From assembly GCA_041739525.1 (NCBI GenBank), contig JBGSNQ010000165.1:14706-78705 (forward strand): a DNA stretch of 64,000 bases, written 5' to 3'. The DNA is from Pseudomonadales bacterium. GTDB lineage: Bacteria; Pseudomonadota; Gammaproteobacteria; Pseudomonadales; Azotimanducaceae. The position numbers and the translations under genes were made by a program. Positions 5,187 to 56,641 of this stretch are shown one piece after another (positions within the stretch are counted from its first letter, which is position 1; every line of letters begins with the position of its first letter). The notes under the pieces are model-generated. The model saw nothing but the letters and a program-made list of their open reading frames with translations. It searched no databases and had not been told where the DNA came from.

Positions 5187-5707
5187 GATTCGGTTCCGTG
5201 CCTATGCGCGAACCAGCCGTCGATCTTCGTACGCTGTTCCTCCGACAACGTCGCATAGAAGACGTCAAACGCAGCCGCAAAGCGCTGCAATGCAAGGTCG
5301 GCCGTCTGGGCGATGCGTACCGCGGCGGCGACGTGCTGAGGCGCATCCCCCAGCGGCATTTCGCAAACGCTCCGCATGTCTACCGCCCAGTCGCTGAGCG
5401 CTCCGGTTGCCCCCGTGAGTGCGGCGACCTGCGATTCATCGAGCGTGAGCTCTTCCACCACCCAACGGTTCAACTCGGCCGCATGGTCCACCACGTGCGT
5501 ATCATCGAGATGCGAGCATGCGCGCGCCATTCCGCGGCCGTGGCCGCCATGGCCGTGTCCGCCGCCATGGCCGTGCCAAAGCCCACCGGCGGAGGCCAGA
5601 ACCATGCCTGGTTCGGCCGCGCGCACCGCAAATGCGCCAAACCCGACGATAGACAGCAGTACCGTGAGGGTCGTCAACAACACCGAAACAACGATGGTCT
5701 TCTTCAT
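5183..5707 (-). CDS. Spy/CpxP-family periplasmic protein with a His/Gly-rich tract
   Basis: Signal peptide MKKTIVVSVLLTTL..., a HGHGGGHGHGGHG tract, and two LTxxQ-like motifs (LTLDESQ, LSEEQ). Divergent from an OmpR/EnvZ-type pair, as in cpxP-cpxRA. Confidence 0.6.
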   Translation of the reverse strand: MKKTIVVSVLLTTLTVLLSIVGFGAFAVRAAEPGMVLASAGGLWHGHGGGHGHGGHGRGMARACSHLDDTHVVDHAAELNRWVVEELTLDESQVAALTGATGALSDWAVDMRSVCEMPLGDAPQHVAAAVRIAQTADLALQRFAAAFDVFYATLSEEQRTKIDGWFAHRHGTES

Positions 5708-5851
5708 AGGTCACCCGTTTGTCACAGATTGGGATGCCCACCCTAACTTCACCCCGGCGCGGGAACATGGCGCGTGCGCGTCGGATGGTAACAGTGCGTT
5801 ACAACGCCGCCGGCGGAAACAGACCGTTACACTGCGCGCCACCCGGCTTCC

Positions 5852-5857
5852 TATAAT
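5852..5857 (+). promoter_or_regulatory. candidate -10 hexamer (TATAAT) 7 nt upstream of the response-regulator ATG
   Basis: Perfect TATAAT at 5852-5857. No Shine-Dalgarno lies between it and ATG 5865. GTAAC/GTTAC half-sites at 5788-5802 and 5826-5830 lie upstream. Confidence 0.3.
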
Positions 5858-5864
5858 CCCGCGC

Positions 5865-6605
5865 ATGTCCGACGCCCAACGCATCCTCATCGTCGACGAC
5901 GATCCCGACATTCGCACGCTGGTGGCGGACTTCATCGGCCGACACGGCTTCGAGGTAGACACTGCTCGCAACGGTGCGGCGATGCATACCGCCCTCGCCC
6001 GCGGCCATTTCGACCTCGTCGTGCTCGACATCATGATGCCGGGTGAGGACGGCCTCAGCCTGTGTCGCACGCTGCGTGCGCAAACGCAGATCCCGGTCAT
6101 CTTCCTCACTGCCGCAGCCGAAGAGACCGATCGCGTCGTGGGTCTCGAAATGGGCGCGGACGACTACGTCGTGAAACCGTTCGCGCCGCGGGAATTACTG
6201 GCACGCATACGCGCCGTGCTGCGCCGCGCATCCGGGCTGGTGGCGGTGCACCGCATCGATCCGGCAGAGCGTTTGACGTTCGACGGTTGGCAACTGATAC
6301 CGGGGCGCCGCGAACTCTACGACGCGCGCGGCACGCTCGTGAGCCTCACCGCCGGCGAGTTCGACCTGCTCGTTGCACTCGCACGAAACGCAGGCCAGAT
6401 ACTGTCGCGCGATCAGTTGCTCGATCTGACGAAAGGTCGATCCGCGGCCGCATTCGATCGCAGCGTCGATGTGCAACTGTCCCGGCTGCGCCGCAAGCTC
6501 GAGCACGATCCGGCGCAGCCCACGCTGATCAAGACGGTTCGTGGCGGCGGCTACTTGTTCGCGCCGTCGGTGGTGATCGCCACTGACGCCTCCGCGAAGG
6601 GGTGA
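5865..6605 (+). CDS. OmpR-family response regulator
   Basis: Receiver domain (ILIVDDD...LDIMMPGEDG) plus a winged-helix C-terminus (VDVQLSRLRRKLE...IKTVRGGGY). The start is set at the M preceding the receiver domain. Confidence 0.9.
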   Translation: MSDAQRILIVDDDPDIRTLVADFIGRHGFEVDTARNGAAMHTALARGHFDLVVLDIMMPGEDGLSLCRTLRAQTQIPVIFLTAAAEETDRVVGLEMGADDYVVKPFAPRELLARIRAVLRRASGLVAVHRIDPAERLTFDGWQLIPGRRELYDARGTLVSLTAGEFDLLVALARNAGQILSRDQLLDLTKGRSAAAFDRSVDVQLSRLRRKLEHDPAQPTLIKTVRGGGYLFAPSVVIATDASAKG

Positions 6606-6608
6606 CAC

Positions 6609-7901
6609 GTGAGCCAGTTTGCCCGCATCGCATGGATCATCGTTGCAGGGTTTCTGGCGCTCGAGTTGATCGCATACGGCATTCGGGTACACGACGAAGG
6701 CGTTTCGAGCACGGGCGCCTACGCCGCATCCGTGGCGGATCGAGCAGTCACCCTCGACCGTTTGTTGGACGGTATATCGGCCGAGGAACAGCAACGCCTG
6801 CTGACGGCCGCATCGGGACCGGGCTTCCAGGTATCGCTGAGTGCAACCGAACCGCAACTGCCGCCGAACAGCTGGCGTCACGCCGACGAAATCTCCTCCG
6901 ATCTCGATGCGTATTTGAAACGCGCGGGTGCCGGCGGAACACGGATTGCCTTGTCGGAAAGGCGCACGGTCACCGTAGTGGTGCCGCGGCGCGCGAACGA
7001 CTATCTGGTGGTGCGCGCAGACGGCAGCGGACTCACTGCGCACGCGCGCCCGGCATTCATCGGCACGCTCACGACGCTGCTCGTTGCGGGCCTGGTGTTG
7101 TGGGCCACACGCCGATCGATCGGTCATCTGCCGCGCTTTGCCATCGCAGCTGAAGCGCTCGGTCGCAATGTGGCCGCACCGGAACTGGCCGAGACGGGGC
7201 CGCGCGAAGTACGACGTGCGGCCGTTGCATTCAACGAAATGGCGCGCCGCATCCGCGCCTATCTCGACGAACGTACACAGATGCTCGCCGCGGTCTCGCA
7301 CGACATCCGCACACAGCTCACGCGGCTTGCGATGCGCCTCGAATACGTAACGGATCGGAATCAGCAGGCTCGCGCCCGTGAAGACGTCGCGCAGATGACA
7401 CGCCTGCTCGACTCGGTGCTCGCGTTCTCGCGCGAGGATCGCGCCGAAGAGCCTTCGATTTCGCTCGACCTCGCTACGCTGCTCGACACGCTGGCGGACG
7501 ATGCACGCGGACTCGGCCATCGCGCCCAGTACCACGGTCCGATCCACTGCGTCATCGATGGTCGGCCCACCGCGTTGCGGCGTGCGTTCACGAACTTGAT
7601 CGATAACGCGGTGCGTTACGGCAGCGAAGCCGACATCACACTCCGGGCGGCGAACGACGATGCGTCGGTGATCGTAGAGATCGCCGATCGCGGACCCGGC
7701 ATCCCCGTCGAAGACCGTGCGCGCGTGCTGCGGCCGTTCCAGCGCGTGGAGCCGTCGCGCAACCGCTCGACCGGTGGCACCGGCCTCGGTCTTGCCATCG
7801 CACATACGGTGGTGACGCGACACGGCGGTTCGCTCGCATTCGTCGAACGACCCGGCGGCGGTCTGATCGTCCGGATTGCGCTGGGTCGCACGGCGCAATG
7901 A
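6609..7901 (+). CDS. sensor histidine kinase (EnvZ/CpxA-like)
   Basis: Two TM segments, a HAMP region, the H-box AAVSHDIRTQLTRL, N-box NLIDNAVRYG and G-boxes DRGPGI / GTGLGLAI. Starts 4 nt after the regulator stop. Confidence 0.9.
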   Translation: MSQFARIAWIIVAGFLALELIAYGIRVHDEGVSSTGAYAASVADRAVTLDRLLDGISAEEQQRLLTAASGPGFQVSLSATEPQLPPNSWRHADEISSDLDAYLKRAGAGGTRIALSERRTVTVVVPRRANDYLVVRADGSGLTAHARPAFIGTLTTLLVAGLVLWATRRSIGHLPRFAIAAEALGRNVAAPELAETGPREVRRAAVAFNEMARRIRAYLDERTQMLAAVSHDIRTQLTRLAMRLEYVTDRNQQARAREDVAQMTRLLDSVLAFSREDRAEEPSISLDLATLLDTLADDARGLGHRAQYHGPIHCVIDGRPTALRRAFTNLIDNAVRYGSEADITLRAANDDASVIVEIADRGPGIPVEDRARVLRPFQRVEPSRNRSTGGTGLGLAIAHTVVTRHGGSLAFVERPGGGLIVRIALGRTAQ

Positions 7902-7938
7902 GGATGGCATACTGCGCGGCAAACGAAGAGAAGCGCAC

Positions 7939-9276
7939 ATGAACGACATCCGCAGCACGCCCGTTTCCTGCTCCGACGCCACACAACTCGACGCTTTCGA
8001 GCGCGCGCTGCGCAGCTACCAGAACTACGTCGGCGACCCGATCGCATCGATCGACGCGGTGCTTTCCGAGCACCCCGACTTCGTACTCGGACAGCTGTTT
8101 CGCGCCGGTGTGCTGATGACCGCCGGCGAACGCCGCGTCGTTCCCGAAGCAGAACGCAGCCTGCGTTCCGCGGAAGCGCTTGCACCGTCTGCCAACGATC
8201 GTGAGAAGGGGTTGATGCGGGCGACACGCCTCCTCGTGAACGGCGAATGGCACGCCGCATGCGCCGCGTACGACGCCGTGCTGGTCGAATATCCGCGCGA
8301 CGTGTTCGCGCTGCAAACGGCGCATCTGTTCGACTTCTATCGCGGTGACGCGCTGAACCTGCGCAACCGCGTCGCACGCGTACTGCCGCACTGGAACGCG
8401 AGCGTGCCCGGCTATTCGTATGTGCTCGGCATGCACGCGTTCGGACTCGAGGAGTGCAATCAATACGCGGAAGCGGAAGCCTCCGGCCGTCGTGCGCTCG
8501 ACCTGGAACCGCGCGACGGCTGGGCCGTGCACGCTGTTACGCACGTAATGGAAATGACCGGCCGCATCGACGACGGCATCGCGTGGCTCGAAGGACGACG
8601 CGATGACTGGGCGCCGGAAAACGGCTTTGCCTTTCACAACTTCTGGCATCTCGCGCTGTACCGGCTCGACCGCCAGGAATACGCCGCAGTGCTCGCGCTC
8701 TACGACGCGAACATCTACGCCAACCCGCTCGACAATTGTGTGGTGCTGGTGGACGCCTCTTCGTTGCTATGGCGCCTGCACCTCGAAGGAGTCGGGCTCG
8801 GCGCGCGCCCGGCGGTGGTTGCCGAGGTATGGCGCAAGCGCATGAACGAAGAACGCGGCTACTACGCGTTCAACGACCTTCACGCGACCATGGCTTTCTG
8901 TCTCGCCAACGAGCGCGATCAGGCGCGCGATCTGATCGAGTACGTCGAACGGACCGCGCCGGAGATTCGCAGCAGCAACGGCGACATGACCCGCGATGTC
9001 GGGTTGCCATTGATGAAAGCAGTGCTGGCGTTTGCCGACGGCGACTACGCAAGCACGATCGAACTCGCGCTGCCCGTCCGTGACCGCGCTTACACCTTTG
9101 GCGGCAGCCACGCACAACGCGACGTCATTACGTTGACGGTGATCGAAGCGGCGTTGCGGTCGAACCGAAGCGGTCTCGCGCGTCATCTGATTGCCGAGCG
9201 CACCACACAAAAGCCGGCGAGTGCGTGGGGATGGCGTTTGCTGGCGCGCGCCGACCGGGCACCTGCTCCGCGATAA
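7939..9276 (+). CDS. tetratricopeptide-repeat protein (TTC38-like)
   Basis: Helical-repeat sequence with a WAVHAVTHVMEMTGR block that I associate with the TTC38 family. Start is taken at the first ATG after the kinase stop. Confidence 0.6.
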   Translation: MNDIRSTPVSCSDATQLDAFERALRSYQNYVGDPIASIDAVLSEHPDFVLGQLFRAGVLMTAGERRVVPEAERSLRSAEALAPSANDREKGLMRATRLLVNGEWHAACAAYDAVLVEYPRDVFALQTAHLFDFYRGDALNLRNRVARVLPHWNASVPGYSYVLGMHAFGLEECNQYAEAEASGRRALDLEPRDGWAVHAVTHVMEMTGRIDDGIAWLEGRRDDWAPENGFAFHNFWHLALYRLDRQEYAAVLALYDANIYANPLDNCVVLVDASSLLWRLHLEGVGLGARPAVVAEVWRKRMNEERGYYAFNDLHATMAFCLANERDQARDLIEYVERTAPEIRSSNGDMTRDVGLPLMKAVLAFADGDYASTIELALPVRDRAYTFGGSHAQRDVITLTVIEAALRSNRSGLARHLIAERTTQKPASAWGWRLLARADRAPAPR

Positions 9277-9296
9277 CGAAGCCTTTCGACAAACGG

Positions 9297-10019
9297 TCAG
9301 GCGACGGTGTGAAACACCCGCTGCACGTCGTCGTCCTGCTCGAGCTTGTCGATCAGCTCGAGCGCCTCGTTGGCCTGTTCTTCCGGTAACGTCATCGGCG
9401 AAATGCAGACGTATTCGTGCTCCGCGGAGATCGGCGTGATGCCGCGCTCTTCCAGCGCCTTCTGCACGTGGCCGAACTCTTCGAACGCACAACGCACCAC
9501 GAGCTGCGCCTCGCCCTTCTCACCGGTGCTCTCGCCCATCTCTTCGAGACCGTGGTCGATGAGATAAAGCTCCAGATCGTCCTGATCGATCCCCTCCGGG
9601 TTCAGTCTGAACACACCCATACGGTTGAACATGAACTCAACCGCACCGGTAGTGCCGAGATTGCCGCCGAATTTGCTGAAGATGCTGCGCACGCTCGCAA
9701 CGGTGCGCTTGGTGTTGTCCGTTGCCGTTTCCACGATCACCGCAACGCCGTGCGGGGCATAACCTTCGTAGATGACCACTTCGTAGTCCTTCGCATCCGC
9801 GCCGGATGCACGCTTGATCGCAGCCTCTACCTTGTCTTTGGGCATGTTGACCGCGCGCGCGTTCTGCATCACCCGCCGCAGCGCCGGATTGCTGTTCGGA
9901 TCGGAACCGCCGGCTTTCACCGCGATGGTGACGTCTTTGTTGATCTTCGCGAACTGTTTCGCCATGCGATTCCAGCGCGCAAACATCGTGTGCTTTCGGA
10001 CTTCGAAAATGCGGCCCAT
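9297..10019 (-). CDS. YebC/PmpR-family transcriptional regulator
   Basis: [23 protein letters not shown]...[12 protein letters not shown]..., typical YebC-family sequence over ~240 aa. The start is trimmed from the ORF-track 300-aa ORF to this M. Confidence 0.9.
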
Positions 10020-10112
10020 GTTGGCCTCGCAGAGTGGGTGGGGCTCGACGCGGCGCGAATCTACTCGATTCGTGGCAGTAGGAGAAGGGAGGAGCAAGTT
10101 GCAGCGGGGGTG

Positions 10113-10216
10113 GGCGACGGCTGATCGGTGTTCCGGGGCCGCTCTAGCCGTCCCTGCGCTTAAGGCGCGGCCATCCATGGCCGCGACATGCCCCTCCACA
10201 CCGATCAGCCGTCGCC
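10113..10216. repeat. palindromic element A: 19-bp perfect outer stem enclosing a 66-nt conserved core
   Basis: GGCGACGGCTGATCGGTGT (10113-10131) is the exact reverse complement of 10198-10216. The core contains CGCGGCCATCCATGGCCGCG (10166-10185). Confidence 0.7.
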
Positions 10217-10259
10217 TTCAGACGTCGACGGTCACGCCGTCGTTTTGTTGGGGAGGGAT

Positions 10260-10310
10260 GAACGCGCGCTGCACGCGCGTTCCGCACCAACGCGCTTTAG
10301 CGCGTTGGTG
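10260..10310. other. two adjacent perfect GC-rich hairpins
   Basis: GAACGCGCG-ctgca-CGCGCGTTC (10260-10282) and CACCAACGCGC-ttta-GCGCGTTGGTG (10285-10310). They lie between elements A and B. Confidence 0.6.
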
Positions 10311-10343
10311 TTTCTCCACAAGCTGGCGATGGAGTTCGACCTA

Positions 10344-10453
10344 GGCGGGCGTGAGGGAATGTTGGTGAGGACCATGAGCGGCCATGGATGGCCGCGATTG
10401 AGCGACCACGGAAGGCTCGAGCGTGTCCGAACCAACATTCCCTCACGCCCGCC
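10344..10453. repeat. palindromic element B: 23-bp perfect outer stem enclosing a 64-nt core homologous (inverted) to the element A core
   Basis: GGCGGGCGTGAGGGAATGTTGGT (10344-10366) is the exact reverse complement of 10431-10453. The core reverse complement aligns with the element A core and shares the block GCGGCCATCCATGGCCGC (10378-10395). Confidence 0.7.
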
Positions 10454-10522
10454 GTTATTCGAAGCTCCATCCCACCACCTCCGTCGTTGGCGACGGCCGT
10501 GCCGCTCTGTTGTAATGCCCGC

Positions 10523-10967
10523 ATGACCCACCTCCCCAACAGAACGAATGAAGGCGCGCGCAATGCCTGGCGACTTTGTATGGCTGCCATGGTCGTGTTC
10601 GGCCTCGTGCAAGCGGTGACGAACACCGGCCTGCTGCAGACCCTGTCGATGCAACTCTACGGGTGGTTCGGCGCGCAACTCGACGTGGTGTCGATGAACC
10701 TGCTCGCCGGCGTCGGTCTGCTGTCGAGCGTGCTGGCGAACACGCCGGTGGTCGCCGCGGCAATCGTCACGGTGAAGGGTAATCTGGTTCCTGCCGAAGT
10801 GGTGCCGGAGGCAGCCCTTTCGCACGGCTTCACGGCGTGGCCGCTCGCAACGTTGCCGGTGTTCGTTGCGATGATGTTTCGCGGGTACGCTCGGCGGAAA
10901 TGCAACGCTGATCGCCGCGGCGGCCGCCAACCTCGCCGCAATCGGCGTAGGAAGACAGCGGGAGTGA
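10523..10967 (+). pseudogene. C-terminal remnant of an ArsB/NhaD/CitMHS-superfamily ion-transporter permease, frameshifted
   Basis: One frame gives ...LLAGVGLLSSVLANTPVVAAAIV...LPVFVAMMF. A +1 shift near 10877-10880 gives FAGTLGGNATLIAAAAANLAAIGV...* (TGA 10965-10967). Only ~150 of the expected >400 residues are present. Confidence 0.6.
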
Positions 10968-10971
10968 CGCA

Positions 10972-11784
10972 ATGTTGAGTCTAACCAACGATTCACTAGA
11001 GGTGCAGCTGCTCGATCCAGCAGCGGACCGCCCGCGCTTCGGTGTGCGTTACTGCACCGGCGGTTACATCTTCCAGATCCGCGACCGCGTGCACGGCGAC
11101 CTGCTCAGCGGTCCGACGTTTCCTGACAGCTTCAACTGGTTCGACGGCCAGGGTATTCCGGACGCGTTCAATCTGGGTCCACTGAACTCGAACAAAACGC
11201 TCGGCGAAGCGCTGATCATCGGCATCGGCGTGTGCGACACGCAGGCGCGCACCGTCAAGTCGTTCAGCGATTGGCACGTCACGCGTGGTGCCGATTCGGT
11301 CGAGTTCGAAACCCGGCAGACTTACGAGGACTTTTCGCTGACCCTTTCGCGAACCGTTTCGCTGCACGAACGCACGATTCGTTCGCACACCACGCTCGCC
11401 AACGTCGGTAAAGCACCGGTGCCGATGCGCTGGTTCCCACATCCCTTCTACCCGCAAACCGCAACCGACGAACTGCTGTGGATCAACGCGCCGCTGAACT
11501 GGCGCGATGCCAACGGATATACCCGGCTGCGGAATGGTTTCATCGCGCGCACCGGGTGGCCGTGGCAAGACGGCCACTATCAGCCGCTCGACCACGATGC
11601 GACGGCACCGCTGATTCTGCTGCAACGACATCCCACGCTCGGCCTCGTTTCGGCAACGTGCAGCTACGTGCCGGACTATTTCCCCATCTGGGGCAATGCG
11701 GCGACCTTCTCGTGGGAGCCGTTTCTCGAACGCACGGTATTCCCGGGGCAGTCGTACAGCTGGTGGATCGACTATTCCTTCTGA
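10972..11784 (+). CDS. hypothetical protein (no motif I can name confidently)
   Basis: 270-aa ORF with coding-like composition. The ATG lies 4 nt after the stop of the transporter remnant. Confidence 0.55.
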   Translation: MLSLTNDSLEVQLLDPAADRPRFGVRYCTGGYIFQIRDRVHGDLLSGPTFPDSFNWFDGQGIPDAFNLGPLNSNKTLGEALIIGIGVCDTQARTVKSFSDWHVTRGADSVEFETRQTYEDFSLTLSRTVSLHERTIRSHTTLANVGKAPVPMRWFPHPFYPQTATDELLWINAPLNWRDANGYTRLRNGFIARTGWPWQDGHYQPLDHDATAPLILLQRHPTLGLVSATCSYVPDYFPIWGNAATFSWEPFLERTVFPGQSYSWWIDYSF

Positions 11785-23333: not shown

Positions 23334-24557
23334 CTACGCGTCGAGGCGCATCTGCCGCACGTCGCGTACACACAGCGTTAGTGCGGTTGGAATCACCACC
23401 ATCGCAACGGCAATCCACGCGGTGGTCTGTGTACCGAGTGCCTCGATCGATACACCCGCCGCGATGAGACCGAGCGGTGCCAGCGCAAAAGAACCGAGCG
23501 CATCGTAAGAGCTGATACGCGACAACATCTCCGCCGGGATCTTTCGGTGCAGCGTCGTGTACCACAGCACACCGACGAGCTGACCGCACACGCCGTGTGC
23601 GAACGTGGCGATCGCCACGAGCCACACCATCGTCGTGGACGCGAGCAGCAACGCCGGTGCCGCATAAACGAACACGCACATCGTAATCACGAGCATCGGC
23701 CGTACGACATTCAGACGCATCGCGACGAAGCCGCCGGTCAACGTACCGATTCCGAACGCAGCGCTGATGAAACCCCAGTCCGGTGGTCCGCCCATCGATG
23801 TTTTTGCCACGGTAGGACCGATCAGGCCGTACACACTCTGCACGGCCGCGACGATCAGCGAGAACTGCAGCACGATCACCCACAACCATTGGTGCGAGAC
23901 AAATTCCCGCCAGCCGGACTTCAGATCGTCGATCAAATCGGAGGTACGCGCCTGCGCAACAGCGGGAACGCCGATGCGCGACACCAGCACCGCCGCAATA
24001 CCGAATCCCGCCGCATCGATCGCGATGGTCGGCCCGCTGCCGAACAACGCCACGAGAATGCCCGCACACGCAGCGCCGAGTGCAAAAGCGCCGCTGCGCG
24101 CGGTACCAAGCAACGCGTTGGCGGCCTGCAATTTCTCGGGTTTCACAACCTGCGGTATGAAGCCGACCAGGGCCGGTTGGTGGAACGCCAGCGCCACGCC
24201 GTTGCACACCATCAACGCCATCATCAGCGGCACATGTGCGTGACCGGTGACGAAGGCGATCGCCATCGTCGCCTGGATGCTCATTGCGAGTACATCGGCG
24301 GATACCATCACGCGCCGTCGCGAGACGCGATCTGCAACAACGCCACCGAACAACAGCACCGCGATCTGCGCGGCAGTCTGGCACGCGATCACGACGCCCG
24401 TGTCGCGCGCCGACCCGGTTACGTGCAGCACGCCGAAGGCCATTGCGATCGGCGCCATCAACGTACCGAACCAAGCCACGAGATGCGCGCTGAACAGTTT
24501 TGCAAAGTCGCGATCGCGCAGCAGTACGGCGGCACCGCTGAATTGTGGACGGCTCAC
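23334..24557 (-). CDS. MFS transporter
   Basis: 407 aa, ~12 hydrophobic helices, GGVVADRVSRRRVM loop motif. Confidence 0.85.
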   Translation of the reverse strand: MSRPQFSGAAVLLRDRDFAKLFSAHLVAWFGTLMAPIAMAFGVLHVTGSARDTGVVIACQTAAQIAVLLFGGVVADRVSRRRVMVSADVLAMSIQATMAIAFVTGHAHVPLMMALMVCNGVALAFHQPALVGFIPQVVKPEKLQAANALLGTARSGAFALGAACAGILVALFGSGPTIAIDAAGFGIAAVLVSRIGVPAVAQARTSDLIDDLKSGWREFVSHQWLWVIVLQFSLIVAAVQSVYGLIGPTVAKTSMGGPPDWGFISAAFGIGTLTGGFVAMRLNVVRPMLVITMCVFVYAAPALLLASTTMVWLVAIATFAHGVCGQLVGVLWYTTLHRKIPAEMLSRISSYDALGSFALAPLGLIAAGVSIEALGTQTTAWIAVAMVVIPTALTLCVRDVRQMRLDA

Positions 24558-24602
24558 ATGGGTTGCGACGGTCCGGTTGAACCGCCGTAGTCACCGATTG
24601 CG

Positions 24603-25211
24603 TTACTTCATCAGGCCTTCGGCACGAAGCGCTTCCTGCACTTTCGGGCGCGCGGCGATGCGTCCGGAATACGCCGCGACGTTCGGGAATGCTTTCAGAT
24701 CCATGCCGACGAAGTTCGCCCAGTTCAGAATCGTGAACGCGTACGCGTCGGCTGCCGTGAACGTATCGCCCAGCAGGAACTGCTTGTTCGCGAGTTGCTC
24801 GTTCAGATAACCGATCCGCTTCGTGATGGTCGCCTTCGCCGCTTCTTTTCCCGCATCGGTTGTAGCCGGGTTGAACAGCGGACCGAAGTTCTTGTGCAGT
24901 TCGGTGCCGATGAAGTTCAGCCACTCCTGCAACCGATAGCGATCTACCGTGCCGGCCGCCGGTGCGAGTTTCGTGGCGGGCTTCTGATCGGCGAGGTATT
25001 GAACGATCGCCGGACCTTCGGTGAGCACGCTGCCGTCGTCGAGGCGCAGCGCCGGCACGTACCCTTTCGGATTGATCTTCGAATAGTCGTCGCCGTTTGC
25101 CGTCTTGTGCTGCGCGAGGTCGACTTTTTCCAGTTCGACCGCGATACCGGCTTCGCGCGCAACGATGTGCGGCGACAACGAGCAGGCGCCCGGGGAGTAA
25201 TACAGTTTCAT
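24603..25211 (-). CDS. glutathione S-transferase
   Basis: MKLYYSPGACSLSPHIVAREAG...YVPAL...GPAIVQYL, bacterial GstA/beta-class-like, 202 aa. The start is trimmed from the longer ORF. Confidence 0.9.
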   Translation of the reverse strand: MKLYYSPGACSLSPHIVAREAGIAVELEKVDLAQHKTANGDDYSKINPKGYVPALRLDDGSVLTEGPAIVQYLADQKPATKLAPAAGTVDRYRLQEWLNFIGTELHKNFGPLFNPATTDAGKEAAKATITKRIGYLNEQLANKQFLLGDTFTAADAYAFTILNWANFVGMDLKAFPNVAAYSGRIAARPKVQEALRAEGLMK

Positions 25212-48039: not shown

Positions 48040-50193
48040 ATGAACCTGTTCGCAACACATCCCTTGGGCTTTTCCGACCTGATCGAGCAGGAACTGCTCG
48101 GCTGCGGCGGAGCGGTGGCCACGCGCACGACCGCCGGCATCGGCTTCGCCGGCAATCTCGAGTGCGCATACCGGATGTGTCTGTGGAGCCGCATCGCCAA
48201 CCGCATTCTGCTGCAGATCGACACGTTCGATGCACCGGAGCCCGACGCGCTGTACTACGGTATCCAGCGCATCGACTGGCAAATGCACCTGCACCCCACT
48301 GGTTCCATCGCGGTCGATTTCGTTACGGCGCGATCACAGATCAACCACAGTTTGTACGGTGCGCAGCGCGTCAAAGACGCGATCGTGGACCAGCTGCGCG
48401 ACGCAACCGGCGCACGGCCGAACGTCGACCTCGAGGCGCCCGACGTTCGCATCAACGTATTCCTCGATCGCGATCGCGCCTCGGTGGCGATCGATCTGTC
48501 CGGCGAAAGCCTGCACCGGCGCGGCTATCGTCAGGCACAGGGTCCCGCACCGTTGAAAGAGAACCTGGCGGCCGGTCTGCTGTTGCGCGCGGGCTGGCCA
48601 CAGATCGCGCGTGACGGCGGCGCCCTGCTCGACCCGATGTGCGGATCCGGAACGTTTGCCATCGAAGCATTGATGATGGCCGCAGACATCGCCCCCAACC
48701 TGGGTCGTTCTGCATTCGGGTTCGAGCGATGGAAGCAGCACGATGCATCGGTGTGGGAGCCGCTGCTGGCCGAAGCGCGCGCGCGGCGCGAACGAGGCCT
48801 CACCTCCACGCCGATCATTCTCGCCAGCGATCACGACGCGCGTGCCGTCGCCGTAACGTTGCGCAACTGCGAAGCGGCCGGGCTCGCGCAGTACATATCG
48901 GTCGAACAACGCGAAATGCGCGACATCGTGCCACCGGCGCAACACGGTCTGCTGATTTGCAATCCGCCGTACGGCGAGCGGTTGTCCGACGTCGCGTCGC
49001 TGCCACCGCTGTTCACCGAACTCGGCGAGGTATTGCGTACCCGATTCGAAGGTTGGCGCGCCTCGATACTGGCCACCGATCAGGAACTCGGTTTTCGCAC
49101 CGGCCTGCGGCTCAAGAAGAAAAACGCGGCGCGTAACGGCGCGATCGACGTCTTTTTACTGACGTTCGACGTGGCTGCCGATCGCACGCTGACTGCGCAC
49201 GGCAAGAGACCGCCGAAGCGGCCACCGGCTCTCGATGCCGGCGTCGATGACTTCAGCAATCGCATCCGCAAGAACCAGAAGCGCCTCGCTCGCTGGACAC
49301 AGCGCGAGTCGGTGACGTGCTATCGCGTCTACGATGCCGACCTTCCGGACTACGCCTTCGCGGTAGACGTTTACCGCAGCGATGCCACGTGGCTGCACGT
49401 GCAGGAATACGCACCACCCTCAAGCGTTGACGCCGACAAGGCGCAACTGCGTCGCACCTCGGTGGAAGCGGTGCTGCCCGAACTGTTCGGCGTCGATGCG
49501 GCGCACATCGTAATGAAGACGCGCGAACGAAAACGCGGTAACGCCCAGTACCATCGGCAGGACTCGGCCGCGGAGTTCTACGAAGTGACCGAGGGCGGCT
49601 GTCGCCTGCTGGTGAACCTGCGCGACTATCTCGACACGGGTCTTTTCCTCGATCACCGCCCGCTACGGATGCGCATCCGGGCCGAAAGCCGCGGTAAACG
49701 CTTCCTCAATCTGTACGCGTACACCGGCGCCGCTACCGTGCACGCGCTCTGTGGTGGTGCATCGAGCAGCGTGTCTGTGGATCTGTCGAACACCTATCTC
49801 AACTGGGCGCTGCGAAATCTCGAACTCAACCAGCGCGATCTGCGTCATCACCGCCTGATCCGTGCCGACTGCAAGGATTGGCTTGCCGACGCTGCGACGC
49901 GTCCCGACAGATACGATCTGATCCTGCTCGACCCGCCGTCGTTCTCCAATTCGAAGGCGACCGAAGGAGTGCTCGACATCCAGCGCGATCACGCTGACCT
50001 GATTCGCGCCTGTGTCGATCTGTTGGCTGCGGACGGCACGCTGTACTTTTCCACCAATCTGCGCGGTTTCAAGCTGAATGAAGGCGCGCTCGCCGGCCTC
50101 GACTGCGTTAACATCACCCCGGATACGATCGACGAAGACTTTCGACGCAATCCACGTATCCACCACTGCTGGCGGATCCGCGCGTCGAAGTAG
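48040..50193 (+). CDS. rlmL: bifunctional 23S rRNA m2G2445/m7G2069 methyltransferase RlmKL
   Basis: N-terminus [19 protein letters not shown]...[14 protein letters not shown] parallels E. coli RlmL. Has the NPPYGERL motif and a second C-terminal SAM-MTase domain. 717 aa. Confidence 0.85.
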
Positions 50194-50227
50194 CCCAGGG
50201 AGCGGCAGTCAAGGAGAGACGAGCCTG

Positions 50228-51853
50228 ATGAAGATCGGCATACCCAAAGAGATCCACGTCGGCGAACGCCGCGTCGCCGCCACTCCGGAATCGGTAGAAC
50301 AACTCGCCAAACTCGGTCACCACGTGGCAGTCGAACGCGGCGCCGGCGCGTATGCCGCGTTCACGGACGACGCCTATCGCCAGGCCGGTGCAGAGATCGT
50401 GCCGAATGCCCGCGCGCTCTGGTCCGCGTCGGACATCGTGTTGAAAGTGCGCGCACCGGAGCCCGATGTGCGGCTCGGCGTTCACGAAACCGAATTGATG
50501 CGCGAAGGCACGCTGCTCATCTGTTTCGTGTGGCCGGCGCAAAACCCGGACCTGATGAATAGGCTCAAGGCACGCAAAGCCACGGTGCTGGCGATGGACT
50601 GCGTGCCGCGTATGTCGCGCGCGCAAAAACTCGACGCGCTCAGTTCGATGGCCAACATCGCCGGTTATCGCGCCATCGTGGAAGCGGCGCAGCACTTAGG
50701 CCGCTTCTTCATGGGGCAGTTCACGGCGGCCGGCAAAGTGGCGCCGGCCAAGGTGATGGTGATCGGCGCGGGCGTTGCAGGGCTCGCTGCAATCGGCGCA
50801 GCGCGCAGCCTCGGGGCCATCGTCAGGGCCTTCGACGTGCGCCCCGAAGTACGCGATCAGATCAAGAGTCTCGGCGCCGAGGTACTCGACCTCGACTTGA
50901 AAGAGGAAGGTGCCGGAGCCGGCGGTTACGCCAAGCAGATGAGTCCCGAGTTCATCAAAGCAGAGATGGACCTGTTCGCGCGCCAGGCGATGGAAGTGGA
51001 CATCATCATCACCACGGCTCAGATCCCGGGTAAGCCGGCACCGAAACTGATCACCGCCGGCATGATCGAATCCATGAGAGACGGCGGCGTCGTAGTCGAT
51101 CTGGCTGCCGAACAAGGGGGCAATTGCGACCTGACGGTGCCCGGCGAAGTGGTCGAGCATTCCGGCGTCACCATCATCGGCTACACCGACCTGCCGAGCC
51201 GTCTGCCTACGCAGTCGAGCCAGCTTTACGCGACCAACGTGCAGCACCTGCTGACCGAAATCACGCCGCAGAAAGACGGACGCATCGTCATCGACATGGA
51301 AGACGACGTGATTCGCGGCGCCACCGTGCTGCGCGACGGCGTCATCACCTGGCCGCCACCGCCACCCAAAGTGCCGGTTCCGGTGCCGCGACCTTCGCCG
51401 GTTGCTTCGGAAGGCAAGGCCAACGCCGCGTCGAAGCCGGCGACCGCAGCTGCTGCACACGCACCGAATCAATCGGGTTCCCGAACGGGTTCCCGAACCG
51501 GCCCGATCAAAGCAAGCAGCGCCATCGTGCTGCTATCACTGGCCGCCATCGCACTCGCGATGGTCGGCGGCGGCGCACCGCCGCAGTTCATGCAACACCT
51601 CACCGTATTCGTGCTCGCCTGCTTCCTCGGCTTCCACGTGATCTGGAACGTCACGCCGGCGCTGCACACGCCGCTGATGAGCGTCACGAATGCGATCAGC
51701 GGCATCATCATCATCGGCGCTTTGTTGCAGATCGGCAGTGCATCGTGGCTGGTCAAGGTGCTTGCCGGCGTTTCGGTGCTGATCGCCACGATCAACATCA
51801 GTGGCGGTTTCTGGGTGACTCACCGCATGCTCAAAATGTTCCGACGGGACTAA
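50228..51853 (+). CDS. pntA: NAD(P) transhydrogenase subunit alpha (fused dI plus TM part)
   Basis: [21 protein letters not shown]..., [11 protein letters not shown] Rossmann motif, C-terminal TM helices. Contains a Pro/Ala-rich linker. Confidence 0.9.
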
Positions 51854-51863
51854 CGAGAACATC

Positions 51864-53279
51864 ATGGCGATCGGCTACATCATCGTTTCGTATCTCGGCG
51901 CCGCGATACTGTTCATTCTGAGCCTCGGGGGGTTGAGCAAGCAGGAGACGTCGAGCCGCGGCAACATCTACGGCGTGCTCGGCATGGCCATCGCCATCGC
52001 AGCCACCGTCTACGGTGTGCACGTGGGTGGTCTCGTCGTGCTGATTCCGGCAATCCTGATCGGCGCCGCCATAGGCGGGTCGGTTGCGGCGCGCGTCGAG
52101 ATGACGCAGATGCCGCAGCTGGTCGCGATGCTGCACAGCTTCGTCGGTCTCGCCGCGGTGCTCGTCGGCATCTCGAGCTACCTCGACCCCGAAATGCAGT
52201 TCACCGGCATCGAAAGGACCATTCACCGCGTCGAAATCTTCATCGGCGTGTTCATCGGTTCGATCACGTTCACGGGTTCCATCGTCGCGTTCGCCAAGTT
52301 GCAGGGCACCCTCTCCGGCAAGCCATTGCTGCTGCCGCTGCGCCATGTGCTGAACGCGGTCGCATTGCTCGCTGCGATATGGCTCGGCTATGGCTTCGTC
52401 GGCGCGTCATCGGATACCGGCGCGCTCGTTCCATTGCTGGCGATGACGATCATCGCGATGGCGATGGGCTTACACCTCGTCGCAGCCGTTGGCGGCGCCG
52501 ACATGCCCGTTGTGGTCAGCATGCTGAACAGCTACTCCGGTTGGGCCGCGGCCGCCACGGGCTTCATGCTGTCGAACGATCTGCTGATCGTCACCGGCGC
52601 GCTGGTCGGTTCAAGCGGCGCGATTCTCTCGTACATCATGTGTCGCGCCATGAACCGCAGCTTCATCTCGGTGATCATGGGCGGCTTCGGAACCTCCAGC
52701 GAATCGGCGGTAGCAGCGCCTCAAGGCAACGTCGTCGCAACCACCGCCGCGGACGTTGCGAACTCGCTGCGCGCCGCGAAGGCAGTGATCATCGTGCCCG
52801 GTTACGGCATGGCGGTGTCGCGCGCTCAAGGCGAGGTCAGCGACATGACGCAGCGATTGCGCAGCGAAGGTATCGACGTGCGCTTCGGCATTCACCCGGT
52901 GGCCGGACGTCTGCCCGGACACATGAACGTGCTGCTTGCCGAAGCCAACGTGCCGTACGACATCGTGCTCGAAATGGACAAGATCAATCCCGACTTCGCG
53001 CGCACAGACGTTGTGCTCGTGATCGGCGCGAACGACATCGTGAACCCCGGCGCGCTCGAAGATCCGAACAGCCCCATCGCAGGTATGCCGGTGCTCGAGG
53101 TGTGGCACGCGAAGACGGTCGTGGTGTTCAAACGCAGCATGGCCACCGGTTACGCAGGCGTCGACAATCCCCTCTTCTACAAAGAAAACACCCGAATGCT
53201 GTTCGGGGATGCAAAAGCGATGCTCGAAGGCATCTTGTCGAATATCCCGGAAGCGGTTCCCGTCAGCGCAGTGAGATAG
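51864..53279 (+). CDS. pntB: NAD(P) transhydrogenase subunit beta
   Basis: Multi-TM N-terminal part plus the dIII domain (...[12 protein letters not shown]...[19 protein letters not shown]...). Confidence 0.95.
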
Positions 53280-53313
53280 ACTCGAACTCCGCTTAGCCAG
53301 GAGGAGAGTTGTC

Positions 53314-54417
53314 ATGTTGCTGCGTTCACTGCGCGTTTCGAAACGCGAATTCGAAGCCGGTACCGGCTGGAACTTGAAACCCGAAGGTGCCTGCCAGGGC
53401 GACATCTGCATTCCGCTGTCCAAACCGGCCGGCGATCCGGTGGACGTGCGCCAGGTCGCCAACGACGTAGGCATGCCGCTGGTCGAATCGCCCGAGCACG
53501 GTCTGTGGGCACTCGGCCCGGCATCGATCGGCTCGCGCACGCTAGCCTCTGCGGAAGCCCCCGAACTCACCCTGCCCGATCTCGACGGCAAACTCTTCAA
53601 CCTGTCGAGCCTGCGCGGCCAGAAGGTATTGCTCTTCGCCTGGGCCCCTTACTGAGGCTGTTCAGGAGACCTGCCCGTGTGGCAGGCATTGCGGAACGAA
53701 CTCCACCCGAAAGGCTTCGAACTGGTGGCCGTCGGTCTCGACACACTCGGCGGCGCCGGCTGCCGCGCCTTCATCGAAGCTGCCAAACCACAACATCCAT
53801 CGTTGATCGATCAGCATCACGTGCTGGCCGACCTGTTCGGCGTGATCAACATTCCAAGCAGCGTCTGGATAGACGAACGCGGAATGATCGTTCGACCTGC
53901 GGAAGCGGCGCCCGCACCACCGCAACCCGGTGGCCCCACGGGGCCACGCGTGAACCTGCCTAGCGAACTGCCGCAACGCTTCGTCGAGATCATGGGCGAA
54001 GCGGCGAAGATCAAGAGCGATGCGCAGGCCTATCACGATGCATTGCGCGATTGGGTGAACAACGGATCGGCCAGCCGCTTCGCTCTTTCCCCGGAAGAAG
54101 TCGTCGAACGTTCGCGCCCGCGCGACAACGCGAAAGCGTTGGGACACGCGCATTTCGCGCTGGCGACACAACTCGAGATGGACGGCCATCACGACGTGGC
54201 AATCCCACACTTCCGCGAAGCGCATCGCCTCGTTCCAGAAAGCTGGACCTTCCGCCGCCAGGCATGGTCGTTGGAGAAGGTGATCGACGGTCCGCTGCAG
54301 CGCTTCTGGCAAGGTCCCGACCCGACCAAACCCGAGGCGTGGCCCTACGACGGCGACTGGCTTGCCGACATACGACGCGAGGGCGCCGAGAACTACAACG
54401 AACCCTGGAGGCCCTAG
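53314..54417 (+). CDS. TlpA/ResA-like thioredoxin-fold protein with an in-frame TGA (53653-53655) at the redox motif: candidate selenoprotein (alternatively a nonsense pseudogene)
   Basis: ORFs 53314-53655 and 53677-54417 share one frame. Read-through gives GQKVLLFAWAPY-[TGA]-GCSGDLPVWQALRNELHPKGFELVAVGLD...NIPSSVWIDERGMIV. AGGAGGAG RBS upstream. Confidence 0.55.
53670..53686 (+). other. hairpin 14 nt downstream of the in-frame TGA (candidate bacterial SECIS apical stem-loop)
   Basis: CCTGCC-cgtgt-GGCAGG, a perfect 6-bp stem with a G/U-containing pentaloop. Confidence 0.35.
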
Positions 54418-54448: not shown

Positions 54449-54940
54449 TCACGCGTCGACGTCGGCGTCCGGTACCCAGATCAGCATCAAGAACAGCAGG
54501 CCGGACATGATGACGTGCCACACCACGCCGGCGAGATAGGCGCGGAACTCGTGGTCGAATTCTATGCCGGCCACGTTCATGAACTGGACGGCGCCGAACA
54601 GATAACCGATCGCGATGAACGATCGAACGCGCACACCGACGGTCGACGACATGAACAACACGGCGCTGACGTGCCCGACGATCTCGACCCCTAGAAGTGC
54701 GCTCGAGAGGTTCCAGATCATCGTGCGATCGGTCGTGAACACACCGATGAGCAACGGCAGCAGGCAGAACAGCACGGCGACCATCGCATGCACGACCATG
54801 CCGTGAAAACGGTCCGCCTGCGCCCTGCGCCACCGGCCCGACTCGCCGCGCCCGAACAACACGACGATGGCCGAGAACCCCGCCAGCGCAACCGCCACCT
54901 GCGCGAGCGAAAACAGGACCTCCGTTTCATCGTGCGACAT
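54449..54940 (-). CDS. hypothetical integral membrane protein
   Basis: 163 aa, ~5 hydrophobic helices. Start trimmed to MSHDETE, 5 nt after the upstream stop. Confidence 0.55.
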   Translation of the reverse strand: MSHDETEVLFSLAQVAVALAGFSAIVVLFGRGESGRWRRAQADRFHGMVVHAMVAVLFCLLPLLIGVFTTDRTMIWNLSSALLGVEIVGHVSAVLFMSSTVGVRVRSFIAIGYLFGAVQFMNVAGIEFDHEFRAYLAGVVWHVIMSGLLFLMLIWVPDADVDA

Positions 54941-54945
54941 CGGCG

Positions 54946-55344
54946 TCAGTGTTCCTGCGCGCCGGTCGCGAACTCCATCAGCGTTTCGAGCGCCACGAAC
55001 TCGAGCGTCTTCGCGTGCGTCGCTTCCAGCACCACGCGCGGCGCGGCGCCCGCCTCGTGAGCCTCGACCCAGCGCGCGGCGCACAAGCACCAGCGATCGC
55101 CGGGAACAAGACCCGTAAAGCCGTATTCGGGACGCGGCGTCGACAGGTCGTTGCCGACGCGGCGTGAGAATTCGAGGAACTCGCGCGTCGTCTCGACACA
55201 GACGCTGTGCACGCCCGGATCGCTTTCGTCGGTTCGACAGCACCCGTCGCGGAAGAATCCCGTCAGCGGCTTCGTGCCGCACGTACGCAGCGGTCCGCCG
55301 AGTACGTTGATGCCGCGCGGCGCAAACGCTCTCTGCTCGCTCAT
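54946..55344 (-). CDS. DUF2237-family protein
   Basis: NVLGGPL..C......TGFFRDGCC.T...D.G.H.VC...T.EFL.FS...GNDLSTP...GL.PGDRWCLCA.RW pattern. Confidence 0.8.
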   Translation of the reverse strand: MSEQRAFAPRGINVLGGPLRTCGTKPLTGFFRDGCCRTDESDPGVHSVCVETTREFLEFSRRVGNDLSTPRPEYGFTGLVPGDRWCLCAARWVEAHEAGAAPRVVLEATHAKTLEFVALETLMEFATGAQEH

Positions 55345-55425: not shown

Positions 55426-55776
55426 ATGACCATCAAGCGCCTTCATGTCGGCCCACGCCTCTCGCAGGTCGCAATCCACGGCAATACGGTTTACTCGGCG
55501 GGCATCGTCGCGAGCGACCCTACGGCCGATGCGGCCGGGCAAACTCGTCAGATCCTCGATCTGATCGACGGATACCTCGCGGAAGCAGGTACCGACAAGA
55601 CGAAGCTGCTCAATGTCACGATCTGGCTCGCCGACATCAAGGACTTTGGTGCGATGAACGGCGTCTGGGACGCGTGGGTGCCCAAAGGCAACACGCCGCC
55701 GCGCGCCTGTGTGGAAGCCAAGCTCGCCGCGCCGCAGTACAAAGTGGAAATCCGCGTGCTCGCTGCAATCGGCTAG
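55426..55776 (+). CDS. RidA/YjgF-family protein
   Basis: 116 aa. ...NTVYSAGIVA...Q.LD.ID..L...G.....L...I.L.D...F..MN..W..W......PAR..VEA.L. Confidence 0.85.
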   Translation: MTIKRLHVGPRLSQVAIHGNTVYSAGIVASDPTADAAGQTRQILDLIDGYLAEAGTDKTKLLNVTIWLADIKDFGAMNGVWDAWVPKGNTPPRACVEAKLAAPQYKVEIRVLAAIG

Positions 55777-55798
55777 CGATCCGAGAAACCAGGAGGCG

Positions 55799-56641
55799 AT
55801 GATGAAGGCCGCAATCGGACTGATGGTGGAAGGCCAGTTCGGACTCAACTGGGACCGCTGGACGCGCGTGCTCGACATGGCCGAGCGTGCGGGATATCAG
55901 TGCGTATTCCGATCAGACCACTTCACGAATCCGGCGGAACCGGACCTCGACTCGCTCGAACTGTTCACGTCGCTCACGTATGCGGCAACACGAACCAAAC
56001 GAATCGAGTTCGGCTCGCTGGTAGCGCCGGTCACGTTTCGTCATCCGACGATGACGGTGCGGCAAGCCGCGGCCATCGACGATCTGTCGAACGGTCGTCT
56101 GGTACTCGGCCTCGGTGCGGGATGGCAGCGACGCGAACACGAGAACTACGGCATTCCGTTCGACGACTTCCCGACCCGTTTCAACAAGCTGACCGATGCG
56201 CTCGAAATCACGCGACGTCTTTTGCACGACGCAAAGCCGGTCACCCACACCGGCAAAATGATCAGCGTAAAAGACGCAGTGCTGCTGCCGCGGCCGAAGC
56301 GCAAAACGCCGATCCTGATCGGCGGCAACGGACCGAAGCGCAGCCTTCCGCTCGCTGCGAAATACGCGGACGAGTGGAACGGCGTGTTCGTCGATGCCGA
56401 CACTTATCGCGCGCTGAACAAGCGGCTCACCGAGTTGCTGGAGAAAAACGGGCGCGATCCGAAGTCGGTGAAACGTTCGCTGATGGGACCGTTCGCGTGG
56501 GCGCAAGGTGATGGCGGAATCGAGCGGCTCGAAGCGTACATCGACGCCGGCTGCGAGCGCTTCATGCTGCAGTTCACCGACTACGACAACCTCGAGCCGA
56601 TCGAAGCCTGGGCCGCCGACAACCTGAAACGGTTTCGCTGA
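55799..56641 (+). CDS. luciferase-like monooxygenase (LLM) class oxidoreductase
   Basis: ...FRSDHF...LVLGLGAGW...REHENYGIPF...ILIGGNGPKRSL.LAAKYADEWN. AGGAGG RBS upstream. Confidence 0.85.
   Translation: MMKAAIGLMVEGQFGLNWDRWTRVLDMAERAGYQCVFRSDHFTNPAEPDLDSLELFTSLTYAATRTKRIEFGSLVAPVTFRHPTMTVRQAAAIDDLSNGRLVLGLGAGWQRREHENYGIPFDDFPTRFNKLTDALEITRRLLHDAKPVTHTGKMISVKDAVLLPRPKRKTPILIGGNGPKRSLPLAAKYADEWNGVFVDADTYRALNKRLTELLEKNGRDPKSVKRSLMGPFAWAQGDGGIERLEAYIDAGCERFMLQFTDYDNLEPIEAWAADNLKRFR

Follow-up and report, generated by a model that had tools for sequence, protein, structure and literature searches.

In the 64-kb stretch of DNA analysed here (the window), the ORFs 53314-53655 (113 aa) and 53677-54417 (246 aa) share one frame on the forward strand, and direct reading of the window shows that the frame 53314-54417 is broken solely by the TGA at 53653-53655. 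This layout raises the question of whether the TGA ends a first gene, marks a damaged one or is translated as selenocysteine (Sec) within a single longer protein. A preliminary description of the locus had favoured the last of these, with the TGA as the Sec codon of a TlpA/ResA-like protein and a hairpin just behind it as the SECIS. That proposal is now supported by a TGA in 83/83 orthologues, by homologues with Cys at the same site, by RNA-level constraint and covariation in the hairpin, by the fit of the hairpin to the bSECIS criteria and by the match to the curated NCBIfam family NF041054. We are highly confident that 53314-54417 is one gene coding for a soluble NF041054 selenoprotein of 367 residues, and comparison with its relatives leaves hardly any doubt that the TGA is a genuine Sec codon in a thioredoxin-fold redox protein.

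Gene layout and the in-frame TGA

The selenoprotein CDS (53314..54417, forward strand) starts with the ATG at 53314, ends with the TAG at 54415-54417 and specifies 367 residues including the predicted Sec114. Seven nucleotides 5' of the ATG we read the Shine-Dalgarno sequence AGGAGGAG directly from the forward strand (53299..53306), and a gap of 34 nt separates the ATG from the TAG stop codon of pntB (53277-53279). The genes on the 5' side are rlmKL, pntA and pntB, the identities of which were confirmed. Thus the earlier account of two same-frame ORFs split by the TGA at 53653-53655 alone, and of a gene that lies 34 nt 3' of pntB with its own ribosome binding site, is exact in the sequence.

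The TGA (53653..53655, forward strand) occupies the site of the N-terminal Cys of a CxxC motif, and the TGT at 53659..53661 on the same strand encodes Cys116, the predicted partner of Sec in a U-G-C redox motif. W-A-P-Y-TGA-G-C is read from 53641-53661, and the same motif, including the Cys at position 116, is found in 83/83 orthologues. Read-through would give the product ...LLFAWAPY-U-GCSGDLPVWQ..., in which the peptide spanning the junction is VLLFAWAPY-U-GCSGDLPVWQALR. Since ordinary genes of the window end in TGA, the genetic code is standard and the codon has not been reassigned.

The window was also scanned for other ORF pairs bridged by one TGA. The top candidate, 5340-7901, was rejected as a TGA-bridged gene and represents an ordinary neighbouring pair of an ompR-like and an envZ-like gene. 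Another such pair in the window, 23668-24810, gave no family match, and most of the remaining pairs resemble the antisense or out-of-frame ORFs that GC-rich DNA typically contains.

Conservation of the TGA codon and its Cys counterparts

To place the TGA in a comparative context, we used an orthologue set of 83 sequences, consisting of 82 loci and the window; 80 loci, at 63-92% amino-acid identity, came from a scan in which each GTDB species was represented by a single genome. The loci belong to Pseudomonadales, Burkholderiales and Reyranella-type MAGs, which represent three orders. The same codon is TGA in 83/83 orthologues, within the context AWAPY-TGA-GGN-TGY, and it is the sole in-frame stop in every orthologue frame that was read full length. 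An SD-like 4-mer is present within 20 nt 5' of the codon 113 codons before the TGA in most of the 83 orthologues, and in 63/83 it is combined with an ATG at this start position. Upstream of the TGA, bases other than the majority one make up a fraction of 0.14, 0.09 and 0.39 at codon positions 1, 2 and 3, and downstream of it 0.10, 0.06 and 0.37. This pattern of variability on both sides of the TGA indicates that both halves are translated and under purifying selection, and gene continuity as well as conservation of the UGA are established.

A protein search yielded 2885 homologues, of which the best 120 were inspected. Three of these 120 are full length (366-367 aa) and contain Cys in WAPY-C-GC, and the metagenomic Cys-form homologues P0001-P0003 have TGC or TGT at the TGA codon, which establishes replacement by Cys among homologues. 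The question put in the preliminary description, namely which residue homologues carry in the TGA column, is thereby answered with TGA in 83/83 orthologues and Cys in three homologues; decay in the form of scattered stops or frameshifts was looked for among the orthologues and none was seen. The other 117 of the best 120 homologues are C-terminal fragments of ~245 aa that start inside the SECIS loop. Similarly, two long, unrelated contigs (L001 and L002) show a 113-aa ORF followed by a ~245-aa ORF, with the TGA at the identical codon. Automated gene callers thus cut the gene at the UGA and most public annotations are truncated; correct annotation gives back a complete redox enzyme and flags the host as a probable user of Sec.

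That gene callers split the gene in this way in 117 of the best 120 homologues, and likewise on contigs L001 and L002, would agree with two separate genes, the first encoding a 113-aa protein that ends at the TGA and the second a 246-aa protein that starts at the GTG at 53677. This GTG is invariant and, in the window, is preceded at a distance of 8 nt by AGGAGA. However, the GTG is preceded by an SD-like motif in 6/83 orthologues only and lacks one in 77/83, and the 21-nt stretch between the ORFs is in frame and encodes the conserved GC(S/A)xD(L)P in 83/83. Moreover, the split would cut one thioredoxin-fold domain in two, leaving strand beta1 and the active site on one side and helix alpha1 on the other. 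A single Pfam domain (PF00578, 3.7e-13; PF08534, 2e-11; residues 79-193) spans the TGA, and either ORF alone would consequently be a broken domain. Finally, the Cys-form homologues are continuous single proteins and the curated NF041054 model covers both halves. Two separate genes are thus largely refuted and, in our estimation, extremely improbable.

We also considered that a continuous gene might have been damaged, either as a pseudogene or by a sequencing or assembly error, such that a Cys codon (TGC or TGT) was mutated to, or misread as, TGA. A single substitution would be sufficient, Cys forms do exist, and the window probably derives from a metagenome-type assembly, the closest relatives being MAGs. 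On the other hand, the TGA is present in 83/83 independent assemblies from three orders, further stops and frameshifts are absent, the coding sequence on either side of the codon is still under purifying selection, and the sequence immediately 3' of it is constrained at the RNA level (see below). Damage of either kind is hence exceedingly unlikely, and we continue with the reading of one intact gene with an in-frame UGA codon.

The set of loci also allowed us to evaluate the suggestion that the position behind pntAB links the gene to NADPH supply. This idea did not hold: pntB is located upstream in 5/82 loci only, all of them close relatives (L003, L004, L007, L008 and, in part, L012), and in two loci that are 87-88% identical (L005 and L006) rlmKL is directly upstream. 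When flanking ORFs within 5 kb were clustered for all loci, no family was present in more than 12 loci, and the commonest families were inconsistent in side and strand. We therefore rejected a conserved pntAB operon, as the adjacency is confined to the closest relatives and no neighbour is kept throughout the family; judged by gene order, the adjacency to pntAB is local synteny and gives no evidence that the gene is functionally connected with NADPH supply.

A hairpin downstream of the TGA and the decoding of UGA

Bacterial decoding of UGA as Sec involves a hairpin within the coding sequence, and the hairpin CCTGCC/cgtgt/GGCAGG reported earlier at 53670-53686, 14 nt past the TGA, is present as described. 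In the window, this SECIS-type hairpin (53670..53686, forward strand) has a 6-bp stem. It comprises a conserved 5-bp core stem (53671-53675 / 53681-53685), which is paired in 83/83 orthologues, and the apical loop CGUGU (53676-53680), which is invariant in 83/83. The GTG that gene callers use as a start codon (53677-53679) sits inside this loop. When the region 53640-53730 of the single window sequence was folded and compared with shuffled sequences, a z of -0.99 was obtained; from the window alone the hairpin is thus suggestive rather than significant, and it exceeds chance only through the comparison of orthologues.

In this comparison, the three consecutive degenerate codons of the hairpin, encoding Leu, Pro and Val, have a third-position entropy of 0 across the 83 sequences. 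Leu is encoded by CTG or TTG only, Pro by CCC only (or replaced by Ser, TCC only) and Val by GTG only, while these amino acids draw on three or four codons at other positions of the gene (1-1.8 bits). Substitutions in the core stem are restricted to U-G wobble or to compensatory changes from C-G to U-A, with pair 18-32 being CG in 68, UG in 10 and UA in 5 of the 83 sequences; the sources of wobble include one Pro-to-Ser and one Gln-to-Arg replacement. Paired cells amount to 97.7% for the hairpin and to 19-67% in controls with slid partners, its covariation score was reached by 0/500 shuffles, and RNAalifold independently picked the same 5-bp stem. In the orthologue alignment, no conserved lower stem was detected below the 5-6 bp hairpin. 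Part of the conservation could come from the peptide DLPVWQ together with codon bias in a GC-rich genome. This explanation is insufficient, because the hairpin Pro never has CCG or CCT as its codon, yet both are common for the Pro two codons 5' of the TGA (CCC 35, CCG 25, CCT 23). RNA-level constraint on this stretch is thus established, and the codon and pairing patterns support a candidate SECIS that is under selection beyond the coding constraint. In the Cys forms P0001-P0003 an otherwise invariant loop base is altered (Pro CCC to CCG). This is the direction that would be expected if the RNA constraint lapses, and it provides weak evidence given that the three sequences may represent a single event.

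At gathering thresholds, a search of the whole window against Rfam gave no match, and no Rfam model fits the hairpin. The bSECIS criteria (PMC13188914) specify a loop of 3-9 nt with a G within the first two positions, a stem of 4-16 bp, a distance of 16-37 nt from UGA to loop and a minimum free energy of at most -7.5 kcal/mol. The candidate has a loop of 5 nt whose second base is G and whose third is U, a stem of 5-6 bp, a spacing of 20 nt between UGA and loop, and a folding energy of -10.4 kcal/mol, so that a check against all four criteria of that work came out in favour of a SECIS. As in the fdhF/fdnG-type SECIS of E. coli and the bSECIS consensus (PMC13188914), the hairpin lies within the CDS just past the UGA, at a spacing within the known range, and has a small apical loop with G followed by U. 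In contrast to the E. coli fdhF/fdnG-type elements, it is very short (5-6 bp) and predicted from sequence, and CGUGU in its loop does not vary among the three proteobacterial orders. The family offers a clean and deep case of a minimal predicted bacterial SECIS, with a 5-bp stem and a loop that stays CGUGU in three proteobacterial orders, and this minimal invariant element would make it a good model.

Even a conserved UGA could in principle be recoded as something other than Sec, for instance by near-cognate read-through with Trp or Cys, or serve mainly for termination, in which case the hairpin would be a pause site or attenuator. Consistent with this, no sel genes are found within the 64-kb window, where selA, selB, selD and tRNA-Sec were looked for and where ARAGORN detected no tRNA whatever, and the literature searched holds no experimental work on the family. 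In one Burkholderiales MAG (L010), however, the orthologue is located directly 3' of selA (TIGR00474, 545 bits), selB (TIGR00475, 347 bits) and the selC gene for tRNA-Sec (ARAGORN anticodon TCA; Rfam RF01852, 72.4 bits), and it is therefore physically linked to the Sec machinery. Likewise, the hairpin agrees with the consensus for SelB-type SECIS elements (PMC13188914), the site is a redox Cys, as is typical of Sec/Cys exchange, and NF041054 is curated as a selenoprotein family. Taken together, we regard recoding other than as Sec as very unlikely. A tblastn search with SelA and SelB of L010 against the window and all loci matched L010 itself only, and no selD was seen by tblastn in the locus flanks or the window with an approximate E. 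coli SelD query, which makes the selD result weak.

We thus favour decoding of the UGA at 53653-53655 as selenocysteine, which, following the standard bacterial mechanism, would proceed as follows. The hairpin at 53670-53686, with its loop CGUGU starting 20 nt past the UGA, would recruit SelB carrying Sec-tRNA(Sec), and SelB, competing with release factor 2, would bring Sec to the ribosome. Insertion of Sec in the source organism itself, like the redox chemistry proposed below, is what we infer from these features.

Domains, redox centre and related systems

The protein can be divided into three parts. The N-terminal domain (aa 1-78; 53314..53547, forward strand) contains two Cys in CxxxxC spacing, Cys27 (codon 53392-53394) and Cys32 (codon 53407-53409), both of which are invariant in 37 aligned sequences; for these 78 residues there was no PDB profile match below E = 0.6 and no Pfam match. 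It is followed by the thioredoxin-fold domain of the AhpC-TSA/Redoxin, TlpA/ResA-like type (aa 79-193; 53548..53892, forward strand), which holds U114, C116 and C150, the last of these (codon 53761-53763) being invariant in the orthologue alignment. The C-terminal helical extension (aa 198-367; 53905..54414, forward strand) matches Pfam TPR_2/TPR_14 below cutoff and, in profile comparisons, single TPR units in OGT (1w3b, 4.2e-8) and consensus TPR proteins; the match to single TPR units covers a TPR-like helix-turn-helix at about aa 277-309 (54142-54240, forward strand). No transmembrane or signal segment was found in the protein, its maximum 19-residue hydropathy being 1.12 and its N-terminus hydrophilic. 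As a hydrophobic segment is absent, the protein is predicted to be soluble and probably cytoplasmic, unlike ResA and TlpA. An AlphaFold2 model of the Cys-form P0001 from a 37-row alignment reached a mean pLDDT of 47 and a pTM of 0.34, values too poor for a fold search.

In the PDB, the thioredoxin-fold domain matched 3kcm, 1jfu (TlpA) and 4nmu (ResA). HMMER placed U114 on the first and C116 on the second Cys of CxxC in all three, with a one-residue gap, in an alignment in which Cys stood in for U and which thereby favours this placement. The one-residue gap points to U-x-C, a shortened motif, as the redox centre. The redox motif as first described is thus right in placing U where CxxC has its N-terminal Cys, but the spacing of the motif is one residue shorter than in CxxC. 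In the mechanism that we propose, Sec114 would be positioned at the start of helix alpha1, the site of the attacking Cys in the CxxC of TlpA and ResA, with Cys116 as its partner. It would attack a disulfide or an oxidised substrate, after which either Cys116 or the invariant Cys150 would join it in a selenenylsulfide, and Sec114 would then be re-reduced by a cellular thiol system. The two flanking domains, TPR-like at the C-terminus and CxxxxC-bearing at the N-terminus, would probably serve in partner binding or electron relay. A further possibility, which we put forward only tentatively, is that the family constitutes a dedicated multi-thiol/selenol relay enzyme rather than a generic thiol-disulfide oxidoreductase. 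This idea builds on the soluble three-domain architecture with Sec in 83/83 species representatives examined, on the shortened U-x-C and three more invariant Cys residues (the N-terminal CxxxxC pair and C150), on the TPR-like, potentially partner-binding module, and on the occurrence in proteobacteria that were recovered as environmental MAGs.

With regard to identity, the protein is an ordinary member of NF041054 (WAxxUGC_long, equivalog), the 'ResA-like WAxxUGC motif-containing protein' family, as judged by a profile score of 497.2 bits against a cutoff of 300 and an alignment of residues 1-365 to profile positions 1-352 of 354. Family membership is therefore established. Both NF041054 and the window protein have a WAxxUGC motif in which the TGA supplies U, as well as the three-part architecture termed 'long', and nothing substantive differs between them. 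The closest relatives of the window protein are 92-94% identical, and its exact sequence is probably absent from the public protein collection, where the neighbouring PntB has no record.

Peroxiredoxins carry the peroxidatic motif PxxxTxxC. The residues before U in the window protein are L-F-A-W-A-P-Y, with no Thr or Ser at -3 and no Pro at -7, and because PxxxTxxC is missing we rejected a peroxiredoxin identity (AhpC/TSA, BCP/PrxQ). The thiol peroxidase model NF006960 scored 23.5 bits against a cutoff of 140.

A selenoprotein of this description is already on record. 'Prx-like (UGC-containing)' with pfam00578 is among the selenoproteins listed in the passages concerned of PMC2398784, where 46 Sec sequences were reported for it in GOS data and it was commoner in non-marine samples. 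According to the relevant passage of PMC1088965, a single UXC Prx-like sequence had been noted as early as 2005, and a selenoprotein named 'Prx-like (UGC-containing)' or 'UGC-containing TlpA' has appeared in published lists since 2008. As far as these passages go, the published protein resembles the window protein in PF00578 and the UGC Sec motif, and its non-marine preference fits the environmental proteobacterial MAGs found here; N- and C-terminal extensions like those of the window protein are not described in the passages on the UGC-containing family. Motif and domain, rather than a comparison of sequences, lead us to equate this published family, as described there, with the 'long' subfamily NF041054. 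In the literature searched, the family occurs only in tables of computationally predicted selenoproteins, and no paper on a WAxxUGC or ResA-like selenoprotein under those names was found. Since the family has been both curated and published, the present assignment is correct but does not amount to a discovery, and with the family curated as NF041054 and covered by selenoproteome surveys it opens no new question. The detail added here consists of the U-x-C centre, which the family exemplifies, the lack of a membrane anchor, the TPR-like C-terminal motif and the N-terminal CxxxxC domain without detectable relatives.

Among proteins of known structure, ResA, TlpA and StoA (PDB 1st9, 4nmu, 1jfu) resemble the window protein in the thioredoxin fold, in the layout of beta1, active site and alpha1 and in the W-A-x-x-[C/U] context, with E-values of 5e-11 to 8e-8. 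Membership in the ResA, TlpA and DsbE families was nevertheless rejected, with scores of 56 bits versus 170, 41 versus 230 and 20 versus 123. ResA, TlpA and StoA are extracytoplasmic proteins with a CxxC, whereas the window protein has a U-x-C, carries neither a membrane anchor nor a signal peptide, and adds the N-terminal CxxxxC domain and the TPR-like C-terminal domain. By its predicted fold and active site, it would thus work like a TlpA-type oxidoreductase, yet stand outside the ResA/TlpA/DsbE families.

Public entries and the hairpin loop

Among the 120 closest database homologues of the WAxxUGC selenoprotein, 117 (P0004-P0120) are entries of about 245 aa named 'hypothetical proteins', and their annotated starts are GTG or ATG codons that lie within the SECIS loop, the counterpart in the window being 53677-54417. 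These short entries are a systematic truncation of the WAxxUGC selenoprotein in public protein sets. In ten Reyranella-type loci with a variant hairpin (L011, L014, L017, L019, L025, L031, L037, L042, L043 and L046), the outermost pair is broken (C/T), and U-G wobbles occupy two stem positions, at the codons where the protein has exchanged Gln for Arg and Ala for Ser. In these loci the protein sequence appears to shift, with stem pairing kept.

A second pair of ORFs in the window likewise shares one frame with a single TGA between its members (5340-7901). The C-terminal part of the first ORF (5340-6602) is an OmpR-like response regulator, and the second (6606-7898) encodes an EnvZ-like histidine kinase. 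We rejected this site as a recoding candidate and regard the pair as ordinary adjacent genes.

Genomic surroundings

Upstream of the selenoprotein gene, the mechanically called pntA ORF (50078-51853) begins before rlmKL has ended (at 50193), so that the two overlap. Because the NCBIfam PntA alignment opens at residue 51 of this ORF, the true pntA start probably lies near 50228. On the other side, a 277-aa ORF on the minus strand (54449-55282) is convergent with the selenoprotein gene; it had no match in NCBIfam, and two homologous loci (L004 and L058) carry a counterpart with 73-78% identity. Further 3', a luciferase-like monooxygenase-class oxidoreductase (55709-56641) is retained in this position downstream of the selenoprotein gene at about nine closely related loci. 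Its score against the F420-dependent subfamily TIGR03560, 231.4 bits, is exactly the cutoff, and an F420-type assignment is mildly unusual for a gammaproteobacterium.

In only one of the 82 loci, that of a Burkholderiales MAG (L010, span 6361-11098), selA (6361-7848), selB (7845-9800), tRNA-Sec (9807-9900) and the WAxxUGC gene (10001-11098) follow each other head to tail on the same strand. Separately, 3' of one Cys-form homologue, a gene of which only the start (L084:1602-1817) is present before the contig ends carries a Molybdop_Fe4S4 domain and is possibly of the formate dehydrogenase type.

Invariant cysteines beyond the redox centre

Throughout the family, three more cysteines never vary, namely C27 and C32, which form a CxxxxC motif in the orphan N-terminal domain (53392-53409), and C150 (53761-53763), 36 residues past Sec. 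Their invariance suggests that they include a resolving cysteine or make up a thiol relay. The 36-residue spacing between Sec and C150 may resemble the distance from CP to CR in some PrxQ/BCP enzymes.
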